Source: a virus
Taxonomy: Duplodnaviria; Heunggongvirae; Uroviricota; Caudoviricetes
Virus record (IMG/VR): IMGVR_UViG_2579778666_000008
DNA length: 5,985 nucleotides
Reading direction: 5' to 3' (one strand)
Position numbers and translations under genes: made by a program. The first letter of the stretch is position 1, and each line of letters starts with the position of its first letter. Below are positions 1 through 5,985 of the stretch, one piece after another. The notes beneath the pieces were generated by a model, which was not told where the DNA came from, did not search any database, and was given only the letters and a program-made list of their open reading frames with translations.

Positions 1-939
1 CGGGACCGTCTGGTCGCAGTACTGCCCGATGGCATACAGCGCCCACTTGTCCACATCCGCCGCCCCCAGACGTTTTCCCATGCCGTAGCGCGGGTGAGTC
101 AGCATGTCCCACAGACACCAGGCCGGGTTGTTGCTGTATGCCGGTTTCAGGCTGCCGTCCCAGATACCGCTGTACGTGCGTTTTTCCGGGTCATAGTTTG
201 ACGGCACCTGAATGATGCGACCGCGGATATGGTAGTTCACCGTCATCTGCTGGCCGCCGAACTGCTCCGCATCCACCTGCAGCCCCACAATGGCCGTGTT
301 CGGGTAGCACTGTTTCACATCGATGATTTCGGTGTATGACGACCACAGCGTCTTATTCTGCAGCTGGTCCGTGGTGCTGTCCGCTGTCTCCCGGACCATC
401 CGGATGTTAAAGGGCCGGGGAGGCAGATTATCCAGAATCACCGAGGCCAGGAACTGTGAGGTGGTCTTGCCGTTAATGGTGACGTCCTTTTCTGTCACCC
501 AGTTACCGTTACGCTGTAACTGAATCAGCAGGCGGACAGACGTCGGGTTACGGTCACCCTTTGAGGTGGTCTCCACCAGTGACTGCACCCCGAAGGTAAC
601 CCGCAGGCGGTCAATGTTCGCGGACGTAATGGTGCGCGTCACCGGCTTTGCCTTCGTCACTTCCACACCCAGTACAGTTTCAGCTCCGGAGGACTCAAAG
701 CCTTCCGGTGGTGTCTGCTCCTGCTCCCCGGCGCGCCAGACCGCTGTCACACCGTGTATCACGGGATTACCGTCCGTGTCCGTCAGCGGGGTTTTGTTCA
801 CCAGGATACTCTGCAGTCCCTTCACCGGGCCTTCCACCGGTCCCTCACCACTGGCATCAATCACGCTCATCATCTGCGTGGATTTGAGATTATCCTTCGC
901 CTCACGAGGTGTGTGTGCCTTACCGCCACCTTTTCCCAT
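1..939 (-). CDS. J: Tail tip / host-specificity protein J, N-terminal 313 codons; the 3' end lies beyond the left edge of the window
   Basis: Hand translation of the minus strand from ATG at 939..937 gives MGKGGGKAHTPRE..., matching the lambda J N-terminus as I recall it (MGKGSSKGHTPREAKDNLKS). The frame stays open through position 1 with no stop (checked codon by codon). Codons at the left edge translate to ...SNNPAWCLWDMLTHPRYGMGKRLGAADVDKWALYAIGQYCDQTVP, near-identical to the corresponding lambda J segment. A GGAAGG Shine-Dalgarno sits 4-5 nt upstream of the ATG (minus strand, about 944..952). Not in the ORF track, presumably because no stop codon falls inside the window. Confidence 0.9.
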   Translation of the reverse strand, partial: MGKGGGKAHTPREAKDNLKSTQMMSVIDASGEGPVEGPVKGLQSILVNKTPLTDTDGNPVIHGVTAVWRAGEQEQTPPEGFESSGAETVLGVEVTKAKPVTRTITSANIDRLRVTFGVQSLVETTSKGDRNPTSVRLLIQLQRNGNWVTEKDVTINGKTTSQFLASVILDNLPPRPFNIRMVRETADSTTDQLQNKTLWSSYTEIIDVKQCYPNTAIVGLQVDAEQFGGQQMTVNYHIRGRIIQVPSNYDPEKRTYSGIWDGSLKPAYSNNPAWCLWDMLTHPRYGMGKRLGAADVDKWALYAIGQYCDQTVP

Positions 940-1042
940 ACAGCCTTCCCCTGAATAAATTAACCGCCACTTGCCATTCCGTACAGAAGTCGGATATCCT
1001 TCGCCCGAAAAGCATGAAACACATTTCTGCCATGCTAAAGAG

Positions 1043-1072
1043 AAACCCCGGTATCAGCAGATACCGGGGTTT
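1043..1072. terminator. Perfect 13-bp hairpin (AAACCCCGGTATC / 4-nt loop AGCA / GATACCGGGGTTT) flanked by T-rich tracts on both strands; putative bidirectional intrinsic terminator
   Basis: Seen directly: 1043..1055 pairs perfectly with 1060..1072, and the GC-rich core CCCCGG pairs with CCGGGG. On the plus strand it is followed by TTTTCTTTCAT; on the minus strand by TTTCTCTTTAG. It lies in the I-J gap, about 100 nt upstream of the J start. Confidence 0.55.
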
Positions 1073-1144
1073 TCTTTCATGCCCACCGATAATCCTGTTG
1101 GTTAAAACCGGTAATGGCATAAAAATTCTGAATATCTTCACATT

Positions 1145-1172
1145 TTCACACACTGACTGTGGCGCTTATAAT
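1145..1172 (+). promoter_or_regulatory. Candidate sigma70 promoter: -35 TTCACA (1145..1150), 16-nt spacer, -10 TATAAT (1167..1172); predicted start near 1179
   Basis: Seen directly: a perfect consensus -10 hexamer and a 5/6 match to the -35 hexamer at near-optimal spacing, in an AT-rich context. It points away from J and toward the terminator at 1237..1270. Confidence 0.4.
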
Positions 1173-1178
1173 TTCTCT

Positions 1179-1270
1179 GCGTTAATTTTTTTGTCGTGAT
1201 ATAAGAATAATTCCTTAACTCTAATCTTTGTCTGTCCCCGCAGCTCCGCGATCACTGCGGGATTTTTTTT
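1179..1270 (+). ncRNA. Candidate small non-coding RNA of about 90 nt (moron-type), running from the predicted start to the intrinsic terminator; the 5' end is uncertain and may lie near 1133 if the weaker upstream promoter is the one used
   Basis: A promoter and a terminator on the same strand are about 90 nt apart with no plausible ORF between them (only a few codons are open in any plus frame after the start). The body is AU-rich and ends in a GC stem plus U8, the usual architecture of Hfq-type sRNAs. It sits in a gap that is much shorter in lambda, as far as I recall. No homology to a named sRNA can be asserted from memory. Confidence 0.3.
1237..1270 (+). terminator. Rho-independent terminator, plus-strand oriented: stem CCCGCAG (1237..1243) / CTGCGGG (1255..1261), 11-nt loop, then A + T8 (1263..1270)
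   Basis: Seen directly. The T8 run follows the stem only on the plus strand; the minus-strand reading has an A-run before the stem and no U-tract after it, so it is not a terminator for the tail operon. It ends 7 nt before the I stop codon on the opposite strand (convergent). Confidence 0.7.
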
Positions 1271-1277
1271 ATTCTTT

Positions 1278-1958
1278 TTACCCCTGCCGCCCGATAACCA
1301 CGACCTTTCCGCCCCCGCCTTCATCACGGGTACTGATGTCCTGGGATATACGGCGGGAGCCAACCAGCATTTCCCCGTAGGGCACCGGCATCGGGTTACC
1401 CTGGGCAATCATGTTATCCAGTGACGAAAAATACGTGTTCTGTCTGCCGTTATCCGTTGCGCGGTAATCCGGTGTTTTTGCCTTCGGGGCCAGCATCTGG
1501 GCCACACCGCCCAGTATCATGCTGGCCCCCAGTGAAAACAGCATCGTGGTGGCAGAAAAACCGCCGGCACTCAGGGCTGTACCCCATAACGCCATCGAGG
1601 CACCGGCAGTGAGGAAAGAGCCCACGATGGCTGCCGCCCCCAGCACAATCTGCAGTCCACCCTTTCCGGCCCCGGCCAGTCGCGGCACAATATGGATAAC
1701 CGTTCCCTCACCCAGTGGTTCGTGAAGGCGGGCATACACCGCCTCCGGTGCCGTATCCTCACCGGCAATGCGTATCTGGTACCAGCCTTCGTTCATCTGA
1801 CGGCGAAAGCCCGGCACCTGTAACGACAGCGCCCGGATGGCTTCCGCTGCCGTGTTCACATACAGGCTGAGGCGGCGGCCAAATCGTTGTAAATCCCCGT
1901 GAAGGCAGATGCGTGCCAGTGGCGGTGACGCCAGACAGAATGCGTTCGTCGTTGCCAT
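1278..1958 (-). CDS. I: Tail tip assembly protein I (lambda gpI family)
   Basis: 226-aa ORF with ATG at 1958..1956 and TAA at 1280..1278. The N-terminus has the conserved ...ARICLHGDLQRFGRR... motif and the C-terminal half is the Gly/Ala-rich hydrophobic region typical of gpI. Its 5' end overlaps the 3' end of K by about 100 nt in another frame, as in lambda. A GAGAGG Shine-Dalgarno-like sequence lies upstream. Confidence 0.9.
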   Translation of the reverse strand: MATTNAFCLASPPLARICLHGDLQRFGRRLSLYVNTAAEAIRALSLQVPGFRRQMNEGWYQIRIAGEDTAPEAVYARLHEPLGEGTVIHIVPRLAGAGKGGLQIVLGAAAIVGSFLTAGASMALWGTALSAGGFSATTMLFSLGASMILGGVAQMLAPKAKTPDYRATDNGRQNTYFSSLDNMIAQGNPMPVPYGEMLVGSRRISQDISTRDEGGGGKVVVIGRQG

Positions 1959-2599
1959 TTTTCGGAATACCTCTCCCGTTTACTCAGTTGTTCAGGCAGA
2001 TGGTGAAGCAGCTCACCGTTGCCGCAGTAAATGGCGGCATGGTTCGGTACCGAAGCACCAAAGCAGCACAGCAGAATATCGCCCGCCTGTGCAGAGGACA
2101 GGGGCACCCGGTAAAAGCCGGTGACCGCCATATTGTCCAGGTAAAGGTTCTGACCGTTGCGCCACCAGTCATCCTCGCGATGAAAATCCGGCATTTCAGT
2201 CCCCGCCAGATGATAAGCATCCCGGAACAGCGTGTAACAGTCCGTCACCCCGTGCTCAAAGCGCCGTCCTGTCAGATGTGGCACACAGCGGAATTTGTGA
2301 ATGTCACCCCGGCAGACCAGCCACCAGGGCAGTGCGCTTTTTATCTGCAGCCGCCGGTCAGCCTCGCTCAGCCAGGGCAGCCCACCGGGATGACTGTGGA
2401 CCAGTGCCACAATCTCCCCCTGCATCTCTGCCCGCAGCCAGTCTTCCGGTGCGATACGAAAATACGCCTCCGGCTCTGCGGAAATATTCACACAAGGGAT
2501 ATACCACTCCCCCTCCGGCGTGCTTATCACGAAGCCGCACGACTCCGCAGGCGCACACCGCCGGGCATGCGCCAGAATCGCTGATTCTGTCTCTGTCAT
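1856..2599 (-). CDS. K: Tail tip assembly protein K (lambda gpK family), with an N-terminal JAB/MPN metallopeptidase-like domain and a C-terminal NlpC/P60-like domain
   Basis: 247-aa ORF starting MTETESAILAHARR, as lambda K does. A complete JAMM motif is visible (E...HSHPGGLPWLSEAD, i.e. H-x-H-x7-S-x2-D). The C-terminal part has NlpC/P60-like Cys and His residues (GVTDCYTLF..., ...NHAAIYCG...). It starts 5 nt after the L stop. Confidence 0.9.
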   Translation of the reverse strand: MTETESAILAHARRCAPAESCGFVISTPEGEWYIPCVNISAEPEAYFRIAPEDWLRAEMQGEIVALVHSHPGGLPWLSEADRRLQIKSALPWWLVCRGDIHKFRCVPHLTGRRFEHGVTDCYTLFRDAYHLAGTEMPDFHREDDWWRNGQNLYLDNMAVTGFYRVPLSSAQAGDILLCCFGASVPNHAAIYCGNGELLHHLPEQLSKRERYSEKWQRRTHSVWRHRHWHASAFTGIYNDLAAASACM

Positions 2600-2604
2600 G
2601 GGAT

Positions 2605-3303
2605 TTACTGCGAAAGTTTATTAATGGAAAGGAAACCGCCAAAATTGCCGACATTCCTGCGCAGTTCACACCCGCGCATGCACTTGCTGCATCTGTCCTT
2701 ACGGATATCCGTGGTGGGTTTATCGAACTCATCCGCCACAGCCCCGCCCGTGTAACCACACTCATCAGAGCGGTAGGTCCACATACAGGTGTTCGCCAGC
2801 ATGATACGACCGGGAAACAGCGCCCCGTCCGTCTCGGTCGGTGTGGCCAGCACAAACGAGGCCGTCATGGCTGTCAGCTGCGACATCTGCTCCACCACCC
2901 AGCGGTCGCTCAGCTCCTGCTCCGGGTCCGCTTCCGGATTGCCCGCCACAAAATTCACCGCATCCAGAAAACGGGCATACACCCGGCGGCGGACCACCGT
3001 GGCCCCCACCAGACTCTGCAGGTCTTCCGCCATCCCGGTGACAAGGCCGAACAGATTGGACACCGTCAGCGACGGTCTGGCACTGCTGCCTTTCCCGTTC
3101 ATTTCAAAGCCGCTGCCATCAATCGGGTACGCCTCATACTTACGCCCCTGCCAGGTGACCGGCTCCCCTTTTTCATTCAGCTCATTACAGAAAAAATACC
3201 GCTCACCGCCCTGTACCGTCAGGTCGATTTCCCAGAGTACCACCCGCGGTGACTGCTCTGATTTAACCGACTCGTTCAGACTTTCTTCGTGAATATCCTG
3301 CAT
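2605..3303 (-). CDS. L: Minor tail protein L (lambda gpL family)
   Basis: 232-aa ORF, the same length as lambda L as I recall. The C-terminal region has a five-cysteine cluster (TCM, DEC, DRC, SKC, RGC), consistent with the Fe-S cluster-binding region described for gpL. Its start overlaps the M stop (TGATG). It sits between M and K as in lambda. Confidence 0.9.
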   Translation of the reverse strand: MQDIHEESLNESVKSEQSPRVVLWEIDLTVQGGERYFFCNELNEKGEPVTWQGRKYEAYPIDGSGFEMNGKGSSARPSLTVSNLFGLVTGMAEDLQSLVGATVVRRRVYARFLDAVNFVAGNPEADPEQELSDRWVVEQMSQLTAMTASFVLATPTETDGALFPGRIMLANTCMWTYRSDECGYTGGAVADEFDKPTTDIRKDRCSKCMRGCELRRNVGNFGGFLSINKLSQ

Positions 3304-3644
3304 CAGTTCACCACCTGCTCAATCGTACAACTGAAATCACTGTACCTGGCGTTATCTGTGACGCTCCACTCCCGGCATACCACCCTCACCGTCCGGTTAT
3401 GTTTCGGCGGTCGCCACAAAAAGGCACGGTAACCACCATGCCACGATAAAAACTCTTCCAGCCATCGCCGGGTCGCCTCATCCGTCACCCGGAACACCGC
3501 CTGAAACGTCTTCAGTCGGGCATTAAGTCCCGTCGGGCGGCGCTGTTCATAACCGTCACCAAACCGTACCCTCGCCACCGACGGTTTCTCACTCACCTGC
3601 ATCCCTTCACGCGGGACCAGATGCAGCGTTTTTATCTCAGCCAC
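3303..3644 (-). CDS. M: Minor tail protein M (lambda gpM family)
   Basis: 113-aa ORF with the conserved ...VRFGDGYEQRRPTGLNARLKT... and C-terminal ...EQVVN, as in lambda M. The initiation codon appears to be GTG (plus 3642..3644 is cac), overlapping the H TGA stop by 8 nt. Confidence 0.88.
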   Translation of the reverse strand: MAEIKTLHLVPREGMQVSEKPSVARVRFGDGYEQRRPTGLNARLKTFQAVFRVTDEATRRWLEEFLSWHGGYRAFLWRPPKHNRTVRVVCREWSVTDNARYSDFSCTIEQVVN

Positions 3645-5985
3645 TCAGCATTCCTCCGTCACGTCGCATGGACAGCATCACCGCCTGCACCCGCTGGTCA
3701 ATCAGTTGCACAAGGCTGCCCGCAGCTTCCGGCCCTATCTGTCCGTTAGCCCCGTCATTCTGAATGGCGATATGGTAGACCGGGGAATACACCAGACCGG
3801 CACTGCCGTTCATACTGCCCACCGCTCGCACACCCAGCGAGCCATCCGCCGCCCGGGTCAGGGGCATAATGGCTTCAGGACCGGCCTCCCCCATCAGTCC
3901 CGCCCCTTTTGCAAAGGCAAAGTACGTGGGCGTATCCACAATACTGTTGCTGTACGCACTCAGGTTTGCCGAGGTATACACCCCGCCTTTTGCATTGGCC
4001 ACCGCACCGCCCAGCCAGCTACCAATACTGCCGATAAATCCTCCCGCTCCGGACATACTGTTTGCCGCCGTCTTGATCCCGTTGACAATCGCGGCATTCA
4101 TAAGAACTTTTGATATTTCCTGCAGCACTGATGAGGCCCAGCTGCGCCATTCCACTTTATTTCCGTTCAGCATCTCCGTGATGTTATTCACCATCCCTGA
4201 GATACCCTCCGTCGCCAGCTGTGCTGCCTGTGAGGCGTAATCGGACGCATTATCCACCCAGTTACTGAATCCCTCCTGCAGCCCTTTCTGCCAGTCCGCA
4301 CGCTGCACATCCGATTCGGCATAAAAGGCTTCCTGCTCTTTCAGACGTTCACTCAGATACTGCGCGTTCTGTGCCAGAGCCTGTCTGTAAAAATCCTCAC
4401 TGATATCCCCGGTCTGATACTGAGACTGAAGGTCCGCATCCTTCTGGCGGAAACTGTCGCGGATCTGCTGCAACTCCCGCATGCGTTCACGGAGCCGCTC
4501 TCCCTGCCCGTACCCCAGCAGTTCCGCTTCATTTGATGCACGCGCAGCCACATTATCATTCTTCAGGGTCTCTTCCCGGGACCGCAACTGCTCCCGGATT
4601 TTTTGCTGGTCAATCAGGGCCGCATTGCGCAGCAGTTCCTGCTTCTGCATCTCCGTCAGGGTTTTCAGTTCGCCCTGCGCAGTCTGGTATTTCAGCTTCG
4701 CCAGCTCTGTATTCTGCCCCGCAAGTGCCAATTGCTCTTTCTGCTGCTTCAGCAGCCGGGAAAAACTGTCTTCCGCTTTTTCCGTCTCTGATTTTCCACC
4801 CCGGGATTTGGGTTTATTCGCCTCGTTATTGCGCCAGGCTTCCAGGGCATTACTGATATAACGTTGTCTCGCCTCCTGATACGGTTCACCCACAAAACCG
4901 AGGTCATCCGCCGCATACCCCAGTCGGACACGCTCTTTTTCTTCCCCTTTCAGTCTGGACAGGGCCAGCTCACGCTCTGTTTTTGTCAGGGCACTCTGCT
5001 GTTTATCATCCAGAGTGGCCTGTGGCAGCCGTAACGGCACATTCACCAGTCCCTGCCGCTGCTGAAGCAGTTCATTACCCAGCCCCAGCAGACGGTTGAA
5101 TTCCGTATGCTGACCGTTCATAACCAGCATGGACTGGTACACCTTATTCTGCTCTGCCGCCTGCTGACGAATTAACGCCACACGACGGTCTTCCAGCCCG
5201 GCAAGCACATCCTGAATGGACTGCGCTTTTTCCTGCATCTGTGCCAGACGGGACTGCTCAACGGCAAGCTGCTCTGTTGCCTGAGAAAGCCCTTCCGTCA
5301 CGGTCTTCACCGATGTCAGATGGTTTATCATGAATCCGTCACCGGTTGTCCAGCCAGGGTTAGCCAGAACATACTGATATCCAGCGATTTTTTCCTGCAG
5401 GGATTTCACCCGGCTGGCCTGTTCATCAATCAGCCGGTTCTGCTCTGCCAGCGCCGCCCGTGTTCGTCCTTCATTATCTGAGGCTTCAGGCAAAGACATT
5501 GACGGCGTTTTATGCGCGATTTCATCTATCGTCAGTGCATACTGGCGCGCTGACTCCCTGGCCTGCTCCTGATTCTGGTACAGCGTATACCATGCTGCTG
5601 CCCCCAGCATCACCAGTCCGGGTACGCCACCAACCAGTCCCAACGCACCAGTCATCAGACGTGAGCCCACCGCCGTTGTACTGTTCAGCGCATTCTGGGC
5701 TGCGGTTCTGGCAGCAATATTTCTGTTCAGGCGTTCCTGTGTGGCCGCCAGACGGGCTTCTGCAGCAATCTGCATCTCCGTCCCGCGGGCTGCCGCCACA
5801 GCCTGCTGTGCACGGTACACGGCTGCCCTTGCCCGCGCCGTGGCAATCTGCGTCCCCCTGAGCTGTGCTTCCGCCAGTGCCACTTCATTACGTGCTGCCG
5901 TCACAAGTCCTGCCGTGGCAGACACCGCTCCGGAGGCCATATTGCCAAAGTACCGGGCAACCCCGACGGCAACCAGCGCCCCCGC
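3637..5985 (-). CDS. H: Tail tape measure protein (lambda gpH family), missing the 5' end; 782 codons plus stop lie in the window and the ORF runs off the right edge
   Basis: The reading frame is open from 5985 down to TGA at 3639..3637 (the last 15 codons before the edge were checked by hand). It has a long Ala/Gln/Glu/Arg-rich coiled-coil-like body, a hydrophobic Gly-rich segment near the N-terminal part, and a C-terminus ...QNDGANGQIGPEAA...RRDGGMLSG that resembles the lambda H C-terminus (...NNDGTNGQIGPAAL...MRDGGLFSG) as I recall it. It lies immediately upstream of M. Confidence 0.92.
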   Translation of the reverse strand, partial: AGALVAVGVARYFGNMASGAVSATAGLVTAARNEVALAEAQLRGTQIATARARAAVYRAQQAVAAARGTEMQIAAEARLAATQERLNRNIAARTAAQNALNSTTAVGSRLMTGALGLVGGVPGLVMLGAAAWYTLYQNQEQARESARQYALTIDEIAHKTPSMSLPEASDNEGRTRAALAEQNRLIDEQASRVKSLQEKIAGYQYVLANPGWTTGDGFMINHLTSVKTVTEGLSQATEQLAVEQSRLAQMQEKAQSIQDVLAGLEDRRVALIRQQAAEQNKVYQSMLVMNGQHTEFNRLLGLGNELLQQRQGLVNVPLRLPQATLDDKQQSALTKTERELALSRLKGEEKERVRLGYAADDLGFVGEPYQEARQRYISNALEAWRNNEANKPKSRGGKSETEKAEDSFSRLLKQQKEQLALAGQNTELAKLKYQTAQGELKTLTEMQKQELLRNAALIDQQKIREQLRSREETLKNDNVAARASNEAELLGYGQGERLRERMRELQQIRDSFRQKDADLQSQYQTGDISEDFYRQALAQNAQYLSERLKEQEAFYAESDVQRADWQKGLQEGFSNWVDNASDYASQAAQLATEGISGMVNNITEMLNGNKVEWRSWASSVLQEISKVLMNAAIVNGIKTAANSMSGAGGFIGSIGSWLGGAVANAKGGVYTSANLSAYSNSIVDTPTYFAFAKGAGLMGEAGPEAIMPLTRAADGSLGVRAVGSMNGSAGLVYSPVYHIAIQNDGANGQIGPEAAGSLVQLIDQRVQAVMLSMRRDGGMLSG

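Follow-up and report, generated by a model that had tools for sequence, protein, structure and literature searches.

The stretch of DNA analysed here (the window) comprises 5,985 nucleotides (nt) of a Caudoviricetes virus, IMG/VR record IMGVR_UViG_2579778666_000008, and represents the tail module of a lambdoid Escherichia coli prophage. Its closest relatives are E. coli chromosomal prophages, which match it over the full length with 98.3% identity. The genes are read on the minus strand and consist of the tape measure gene H (3637..5940), M (3303..3644), L (2605..3303), K (1856..2599), the tail assembly gene I (1278..1859, stop codon 1278..1280) and the 5' part of the tail tip and host specificity gene J (1..939, ATG 939..937). 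Translation of J begins MGKGGGKAHTPREAKDNLK..., and homologous loci carry a gpJ annotation. I and J are separated by a spacer of 338 nt. In phage lambda the I-J gap is merely short, and the spacer of the window is therefore inserted DNA. Its I-proximal half contains a gene on the plus strand for a small RNA (sRNA), convergent with I, which is the subject of the present study. We consider it likely that this gene (1179..1270) encodes a member of the PasB family, an Hfq-dependent sRNA that pairs in trans, and that its seed has been re-targeted.

The sRNA gene has a near-consensus sigma-70 promoter at 1145..1172 on the plus strand, with a -35 box TTCACA (1145..1150), a 16-nt spacer and a -10 box TATAAT (1167..1172), which matched 11 of 12 consensus positions in a promoter scan. 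Placed from the position of the -10 box, the start site is G1179, 7 nt past the box, giving a predicted RNA of ~92 nt. The 58 nt that follow G1179 are AU-rich and without structure. They contain an internal U7 tract (1186..1192), present as a run of 5-9 U in nearly all alleles, three A-R-N repeats, AAG-AAU-AAU (1203..1211), and a single-stranded seed region, UCCUUAACUCUAAUCUUUGUCUGUC (1212..1236), which is unpaired in the consensus fold. A-R-N repeats bind the distal face of Hfq, and those at 1203..1211 are a candidate motif for such binding. The A residues at 1204, 1207 and 1210 (RNA positions 26, 29 and 32) recur with a period of 3 nt and are invariant in 25 diverse alleles. The RNA ends in a rho-independent terminator (1237..1270), also a putative module for the Hfq proximal face, with a 7-base-pair (bp) stem (CCCGCAG 1237..1243 paired with CTGCGGG 1255..1261), an 11-nt loop, A1262 and U8 (1263..1270); its folding energy is -12.6 kcal/mol (z = -2.6). 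Because the U-run accompanies the hairpin on the plus strand only, the minus strand having none, the hairpin at 1237..1261 is not the terminator of gene I.

Coding capacity is absent, since the sole start codon within the RNA, GTG 1196, gives two codons. A small-protein reading was considered and rejected, as there is no plausible open reading frame (ORF) and the alleles differ by indels that are not multiples of three. An earlier note, made from the letters of the window alone, had proposed a non-coding prophage sRNA from about 1179 to 1270, convergent with I. The promoter, the AU-rich body, the terminator and the non-coding nature of the RNA are present as it placed and described them, and the 3' end lies 7 nt from the I stop codon (U-run ending at 1270, stop codon at 1278..1280). 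The proposal also gains from the fact that the EPEC orthologue, PasB, has been validated experimentally.

PasB (pathogenicity-associated sRNA B) was described in enteropathogenic E. coli (EPEC) O127:H6 strain E2348/69, in which it is encoded by prophage PP6 (Pearl Mizrahi et al. 2021, PMC8550237). The 83-nt RNA maps to NC_011601.1 1466343..1466261 on the minus strand, between E2348C_1436 and E2348C_1437 (Table S6, PMC8550237). A northern blot with the probe AATCCCGCAGTGATCGCGGAGCT showed a band at the expected size, and the RNA was reduced in delta-hfq cells with log2 fold changes of -6.8 and -2.4 (PMC8550237). PasB is among the more abundant Hfq-bound prophage sRNAs of EPEC, has 37 interactions in RIL-seq (RNA interactions identified through ligation and sequencing), and is higher under non-activating conditions (PMC8550237). 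In RefSeq, the PasB interval of E2348/69 lies between a tail assembly protein gene and gpJ.

The window element occupies the same slot, i.e. the I-J spacer of a lambdoid tail operon on the opposite strand and convergent with I. The promoter is essentially identical from the upstream A-tract through TATAAT, with an identical core, and across all alleles the -10 box reads TATAAT, TAATAAT or TATCAT. The last 42 nt, consisting of the single-stranded UUUGUCUGUC, the terminator and the U-run, are identical, and the reverse complement of the northern probe matches window 1242..1264 at 23 of 23 positions. Both RNAs also share one layout, with a 5' leader, a U-tract, A-R-N repeats (AAC-AAA-AAC-AAC in the E2348/69 allele), a seed and the terminator. 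Identity is 78.8% over the 98-nt form that begins at our placed start, but only 69% over the body. The spacers differ as well, that of the window being a longer 'type A' form with an extra bidirectional hairpin, and the seed is not that of the EPEC allele. Judged from sequence, the seed difference would mark the window RNA as a divergent allele and leave its membership of the family unaffected.

The locus is thus already known, and what the window adds to this sRNA family is a new allele. Full-text literature searches for the terminator or the probe sequence found no paper, and the supplements of Tree et al. hold no tail-gene or ECs2236 entries under which the locus might carry another name. 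Our assignment draws on homology, synteny, the conservation pattern, the consensus structure and the complementarity between the EPEC seed and its partners, all from this study; the transcript, its Hfq dependence and its RIL-seq partners were established by others for the EPEC orthologue. For the window allele itself, we infer expression, the exact 5' end, the use of the Hfq faces, repression and targets. The finding opens no new category of regulator, and what value remains lies in the altered seed, in how broad and modular the family is, and in a testable seed-target model.

That model was built from ten strong RIL-seq partners of EPEC PasB, chosen by chimera count from the part of the published interaction data covered here: E2348C_2648, the napF 5' untranslated region (5'UTR), map, the nlpD-rpoS region, hflX, fabR, ler, the tolC 5'UTR, caiF and rplX. 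The chimera-defined regions were fetched, and pairing was analysed as windowed duplexes with shuffle controls and by exact mapping of k-mer complements. When the full-length sRNA was paired with 300-nt targets in RNAduplex, the predicted duplexes ran meaninglessly from end to end, and the windowed and k-mer analyses took their place. Within this set, the complements fell in two adjacent hot spots of the EPEC RNA, UCCUUCACAUUGA and AUCUUCAUUUG, directly 5' of the terminator, which appear to constitute the EPEC seed. The position agrees with that proposed in a recent preprint (bioRxiv 10.64898/2026.05.13.724894).

Exact complements of 9-11 nt to one of the two seed boxes were found in six of these ten partners, and map matched at 11 of 12 positions. 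The napF site spans -5 to +5 over the GUG start codon and the tolC site -3 to +6 over the AUG, while the site in caiF lies at +3 to +11. In the fabR-yijD transcript, the Shine-Dalgarno sequence of yijD is covered (-17 to -7). Further sites were located at +32 to +41 of rpoS and in the distal part of the ler coding sequence, and the gene after E2348C_2648 has a 7-nt match to its Shine-Dalgarno sequence. The local duplex energies over the ten partners summed to -212.6 kcal/mol, compared with -183.2 +/- 8.6 for 60 dinucleotide shuffles of the sRNA body (z = -3.4), none of which reached the observed value. This pattern is consistent with an Hfq-dependent sRNA that blocks translation initiation regions in the canonical way. 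The published partners thereby yield a concrete, testable EPEC seed, which in napF, tolC, caiF and yijD would cover the start codon or the Shine-Dalgarno sequence.

It is exactly this seed that is altered in the window allele. At the seed position the window has UCCUUAACUCUAAUCUU-UG, the result of several substitutions and a 4-nt deletion: the EPEC box CUUCACAUUGA is replaced by CUUAACUCUAA, and the loss of CAUU removes the AUCUUCAUUUG box. Over the full stretch, EPEC UCCUUCACAUUGAUCUUCAUUUGUCUGUC compares with UCCUUAACUCUAAUCUUUGUCUGUC in the window. Complements of at least 8 nt to the window seed region were absent from all ten EPEC target sites; napF, tolC, caiF, yijD and rpoS are not matched because both boxes have changed. 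The summed duplex energy of the window allele was much weaker, at -149.9 kcal/mol, a value not strictly comparable with that of EPEC because the body is shorter and more AU-rich. Since the seed differs from that of EPEC, a different set of mRNAs is to be expected, and the window allele probably controls different genes. Prophages that are equivalent by their tail-gene annotation may thus rewire different host genes.

A smaller seed change was seen in the prevalent variant of enterohaemorrhagic E. coli (EHEC), represented by the EDL933 and O103 copies (L004 and L005). It differs from EPEC PasB by C27A, at the centre of the first seed box (CUUCACAUUGA to CUUAACAUUGA), and is presumably the 'PasB-2' of the 2026 preprint. 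The substitution may alter the choice of targets, beyond the predicted folding effect discussed there.

A census of complete E. coli genomes, performed by sensitive blastn with window 1100..1280 as the query, placed the family at 5745 sites in 1859 of 5426 genomes, with up to 11 per genome. None of these places carries an RNA annotation, i.e. about one third of complete E. coli genomes contain a PasB-family gene that is unannotated, and we suggest that the I-J spacer element merits marking as a non-coding RNA gene in annotation pipelines. Among 13 loci inspected (70-93% identity), the element lies between J and I and is convergent with I in 12; at the thirteenth (L013, NZ_CP148334.1), a prophage sodC replaces J. 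A scan of IMG/VR with the conserved promoter block as query retrieved 120 viral contigs with 57 distinct locus alleles and 42 distinct RNAs.

In species-representative genomes, an exact scan for the 34-nt terminator gave no match, and the promoter-block scan gave 18, of which those in E. albertii and on two probable contaminant contigs were real. The other matches were rejected as chance or as a Nostoc repeat. The contaminant contigs are a 3.4-kb contig of Streptomyces flavalbus (L152), with a PasB promoter and a complete sRNA gene, and a 546-nt contig of Asaia platycodi (L145), with the PasB promoter of an E. coli prophage; both are most simply explained by E. coli or phage contamination of the assemblies. 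A spread to E. albertii only among representative species agrees with the reported restriction of PasB to Escherichia and Shigella (Zhu, Shabalina and Storz 2026, bioRxiv 10.64898/2026.05.13.724894). That survey used megablast with a word size of 28 and >75% coverage, and described PasB variants with few nucleotide differences (bioRxiv 10.64898/2026.05.13.724894). Alleles like that of the window probably fell outside its net, and the sRNA body is far more diverse than the survey reported.

Conservation along the locus is uneven. Mean pairwise identities, determined for 13 divergent E. coli loci and for the 57 distinct IMG/VR alleles, were 96-97% for the upstream block (1126..1144), 75-78% from the -35 to the -10, 82-84% for the 5' leader, 59-62% for the 5' body, 64-67% for the seed region, 95-97% for the U-run and the arms of the terminator, and 52-56% for its loop. 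In the IMG/VR set the value for the upstream block is an overestimate, since these loci were selected on that block, but the blastn-derived set gives the same value. The upstream block is accordingly the most conserved element of the whole locus, above the -35/-10 core itself. It belongs to an A/T-rich stretch, ATAAAAATTCTGAATATCTTCACATTT (1118..1144, plus strand, about -61 to -35), with a dyad TGAA-N4-TTCA, which may, as far as its sequence indicates, be an UP element or a regulator site. The same stretch also contains a loose CTG-N10-CAT. Within the variable body, the motifs UCCUU and AAUCUU are near-invariant. The terminator stem is invariant in most alleles, and one allele (a20) has a compensatory change from G-C to A-U. 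RNAalifold predicted a consensus structure consisting of the terminator hairpin only; neither a conserved 5' hairpin nor a long-range CUGCG/CGCAG helix was part of it.

The 5' part, the seed and the terminator loop behave as modules that reassort among alleles. In the window allele, a CFT073-type 5' module is joined to a seed and terminator module that elsewhere accompanies the EPEC-type 5' module. This combination was not found in full length in any of the 5426 complete genomes, the best full-length match having 88.3% identity, and from its sequence composition we regard the window allele as a recombinant. Two IMG/VR loci (L060, reverse complement, ~130..700, and L134) contain three tandem PasB-like genes upstream of the 3' end of gene I. 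Each copy has its own promoter block, U-tract, A-rich stretch, distinct seed and terminator with a U-run, and the first has a different terminator stem, CUCCCGU...ACGGGAG. Insertion sequences were also encountered: an IS3-family transposase gene abuts the sRNA promoter in L047, and in allele a33 and the Asaia contig an IS3-type element lies between the -35 and the -10, where it would inactivate the promoter.

We propose that PasB-family genes are morons which lambdoid tail operons carry in their I-J spacer, on the opposite strand. The sigma-70 promoter and the conserved A/T-rich block would make the gene active in the lysogen, whether or not the Q-dependent late operon is transcribed. Transcription would end at the 7-bp hairpin and U8, and the terminator module and the A-R-N repeats upstream of it would bind Hfq. 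The unstructured segment just 5' of the terminator could then pair with ribosome-binding sites (RBS) or start codons in mRNAs of the host and of other mobile elements, and such pairing would repress these targets. Class II Hfq-dependent sRNAs, such as ChiX and MgrR, use A-R-N repeats for the distal face and a U-rich 3' end for the proximal face. The predicted RNA resembles them in having A-R-N upstream of the seed, a U-tailed terminator, an unstructured body and proposed pairing at the RBS, but there is no sequence relationship, and its likeness to the class is one of motif pattern alone.

Several observations weigh against a trans-acting PasB-family sRNA of this kind. In the RIL-seq study itself, no motif shared by the PasB targets was found (PMC8550237). 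Our seed was derived from ten targets picked by chimera count, and hflX, rplX, map and E2348C_2648 contain no exact match of at least 8 nt to the seed boxes. In EPEC, the 5' end published on the basis of RNA-seq coverage falls at the equivalent of ~1193, about 15 nt downstream of our placed start, which would shorten the RNA to ~78 nt and leaves its length at 78-92 nt. Finally, an antisense RNA that acts purely in cis, and is under relaxed constraint, could account for the hypervariable body just as well.

This last point leads to the reading in which the sRNA regulates the tail operon in cis, which we regard as unlikely, although it deserves to be taken seriously and may coexist with action in trans. 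The sRNA is located wholly inside the 338-nt spacer on the opposite strand, it stays at the same place and in the same orientation in all alleles although these are highly mosaic, and its terminator, having no U-run on the minus strand, would not stop a late transcript. It follows from the geometry of the operon that the sRNA overlaps the late I-J transcript, i.e. a Q-antiterminated minus-strand transcript crossing the spacer holds a perfect complement of the sRNA. Pairing or convergent transcription might cause RNase III to cut the transcript between the two genes, or adjust the I:J ratio, or leaky J expression might be damped in lysogens; conversely, the sRNA could be titrated by the abundant late mRNA that follows induction. 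An antisense RNA acting purely in cis would be expected to let its body drift freely, as both strands change together. However, the invariant A residues at every third position and the UCCUU and AAUCUU motifs speak for constraint acting on the RNA itself, and in EPEC the orthologue has numerous reproducible partners in trans, with long exact matches to the seed in their translation initiation regions. Co-evolution of the sRNA body with the J initiation region, as pairing of the trans type would predict, was not seen: own and non-own pairs were indistinguishable (-25.65 vs -25.55 kcal/mol), and there is no allele-specific complementarity to the cognate J. The lambda OOP and P22 sar RNAs are likewise short, terminator-ended RNAs against a phage operon, transcribed from their own constitutive promoters, but their cis targets are defined and they lie across coding sequences or initiation regions, whereas the window RNA overlaps an intercistronic spacer only and its orthologue has partners in trans.

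Very improbable, in our view, is an anti-sRNA or sponge that sequesters a core-genome sRNA by mimicking its mRNA target, although precedents exist in prophages of the same E. coli pathotypes. AgvB and AsxR, prophage anti-sRNAs of EHEC O157:H7, target GcvB and FnrS, respectively (Tree et al. 2014, PMC4104026), and form a convergent pair at a moron site downstream of the Q-dependent PR', with a conserved ~42-nt 3' region (PMC4104026). Like the PasB family, these are short, prophage-encoded, Hfq-binding RNAs in which a variable recognition part is joined to a conserved 3' scaffold; they too are opposite-strand morons and contain A-R-N motifs, which in AgvB bind the Hfq distal face. They differ in lying downstream of PR'/Q rather than in an H-M-L-K-I-J tail module, in length (51-60 nt vs the predicted 78-92 nt), in their unrelated sequence, the 3' region included, and in acting on core sRNAs rather than mRNAs. 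The earlier note had mentioned a decoy for core sRNAs, and had pointed to a CA-rich tract (1141..1155) as a candidate seed in a 5'-extended RNA made from a weaker upstream promoter (TTGGTT 1098..1103). The decoy finds no support in our data: in the parts of RIL-seq table S3 examined, the partners of EPEC PasB are mRNAs, with no core sRNA among them, and the sole non-mRNA partner there is an intergenic stretch adjacent to pasA. The CA-rich tract forms the -35 region and some of the promoter spacer and is not transcribed from the conserved promoter, and the TTGGTT site lies in a spacer type that many PasB loci lack, including that of E2348/69, which makes the RNA nonetheless. A covariance-model search, which had also been suggested, gave no family: Rfam returned no match for the whole window (expectation value, E, up to 1) or for 940..1290 (E up to 10), RF02702 and RF02703 included, and the best sub-threshold score was that of STnc310 on the upstream hairpin (19.4 bits, gathering score 40). 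Identity with AgvB or a GcvB mimic was rejected on the location of AgvB at PR', the nature of the tract and the Rfam result.

Barely credible is the possibility that there is no RNA gene here at all, the hairpin serving as stabiliser or terminator of the I 3' end and the promoter match being fortuitous. Promoter-like hexamers are common in AT-rich spacers, three being found vs 0.8 expected per 500-nt stretch, and annotation is absent at the locus in all records inspected. The motif count alone does not exceed chance, but conservation does, and because motif counts are weak evidence, the case for an RNA gene rests on the comparative and published experimental data. The restriction of the U-run to the plus strand speaks against a terminator of I, no part of the locus is better conserved than the promoter block, and the orthologous transcript was seen by northern blot and RNA-seq and is Hfq-dependent.

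Returning to a trans-acting PasB-family sRNA, a wider reading can be built on it that is speculative and distinctly unlikely in its entirety, namely that the I-J spacer is a platform for seed-swapping sRNAs, with a fixed scaffold, recombining modules and a late mRNA that acts as a sponge on induction. If this were true, the scaffold would consist of the promoter and the Hfq/terminator module, and the recognition modules would sometimes be tandemly triplicated. Each lambdoid prophage would give its lysogen a different post-transcriptional programme, the fully complementary late tail-operon mRNA would switch that programme off at induction, and the recombinant in the window would be one re-targeted version.

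Other features of the window concern the neighbourhood of the sRNA gene. The longest ORF of gene I extends to an ATG at 1958 (1278..1958, minus strand, 226 amino acids) and overlaps K by ~100 nt, while all annotated I homologues are 582 nt long, corresponding to a start at 1859 with an ATGA overlap with the K stop codon (1856..1858). The spacer further contains a strong hairpin at 1036..1078, with a 10-bp GC-rich stem (1046..1055 paired with 1060..1069) flanked by runs of A and of T on opposite sides; its folding energies on the two strands are -31.9 and -29.9 kcal/mol (z = -7.0 and -6.5). As modelled, it resembles an intrinsic terminator that would act in both directions, placed between the sRNA promoter and J, and in the sense direction of the tail operon its passage would need Q antitermination. 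The hairpin is specific to the 'type A' I-J spacer and missing from spacers of the E2348/69 type, in which a different hairpin has a T-run in the sense direction only. Upstream of the 1036..1078 hairpin is a weak promoter-like site (971..1000, 9/12), which in principle could drive a second plus-strand RNA of ~70 nt ending at the hairpin.

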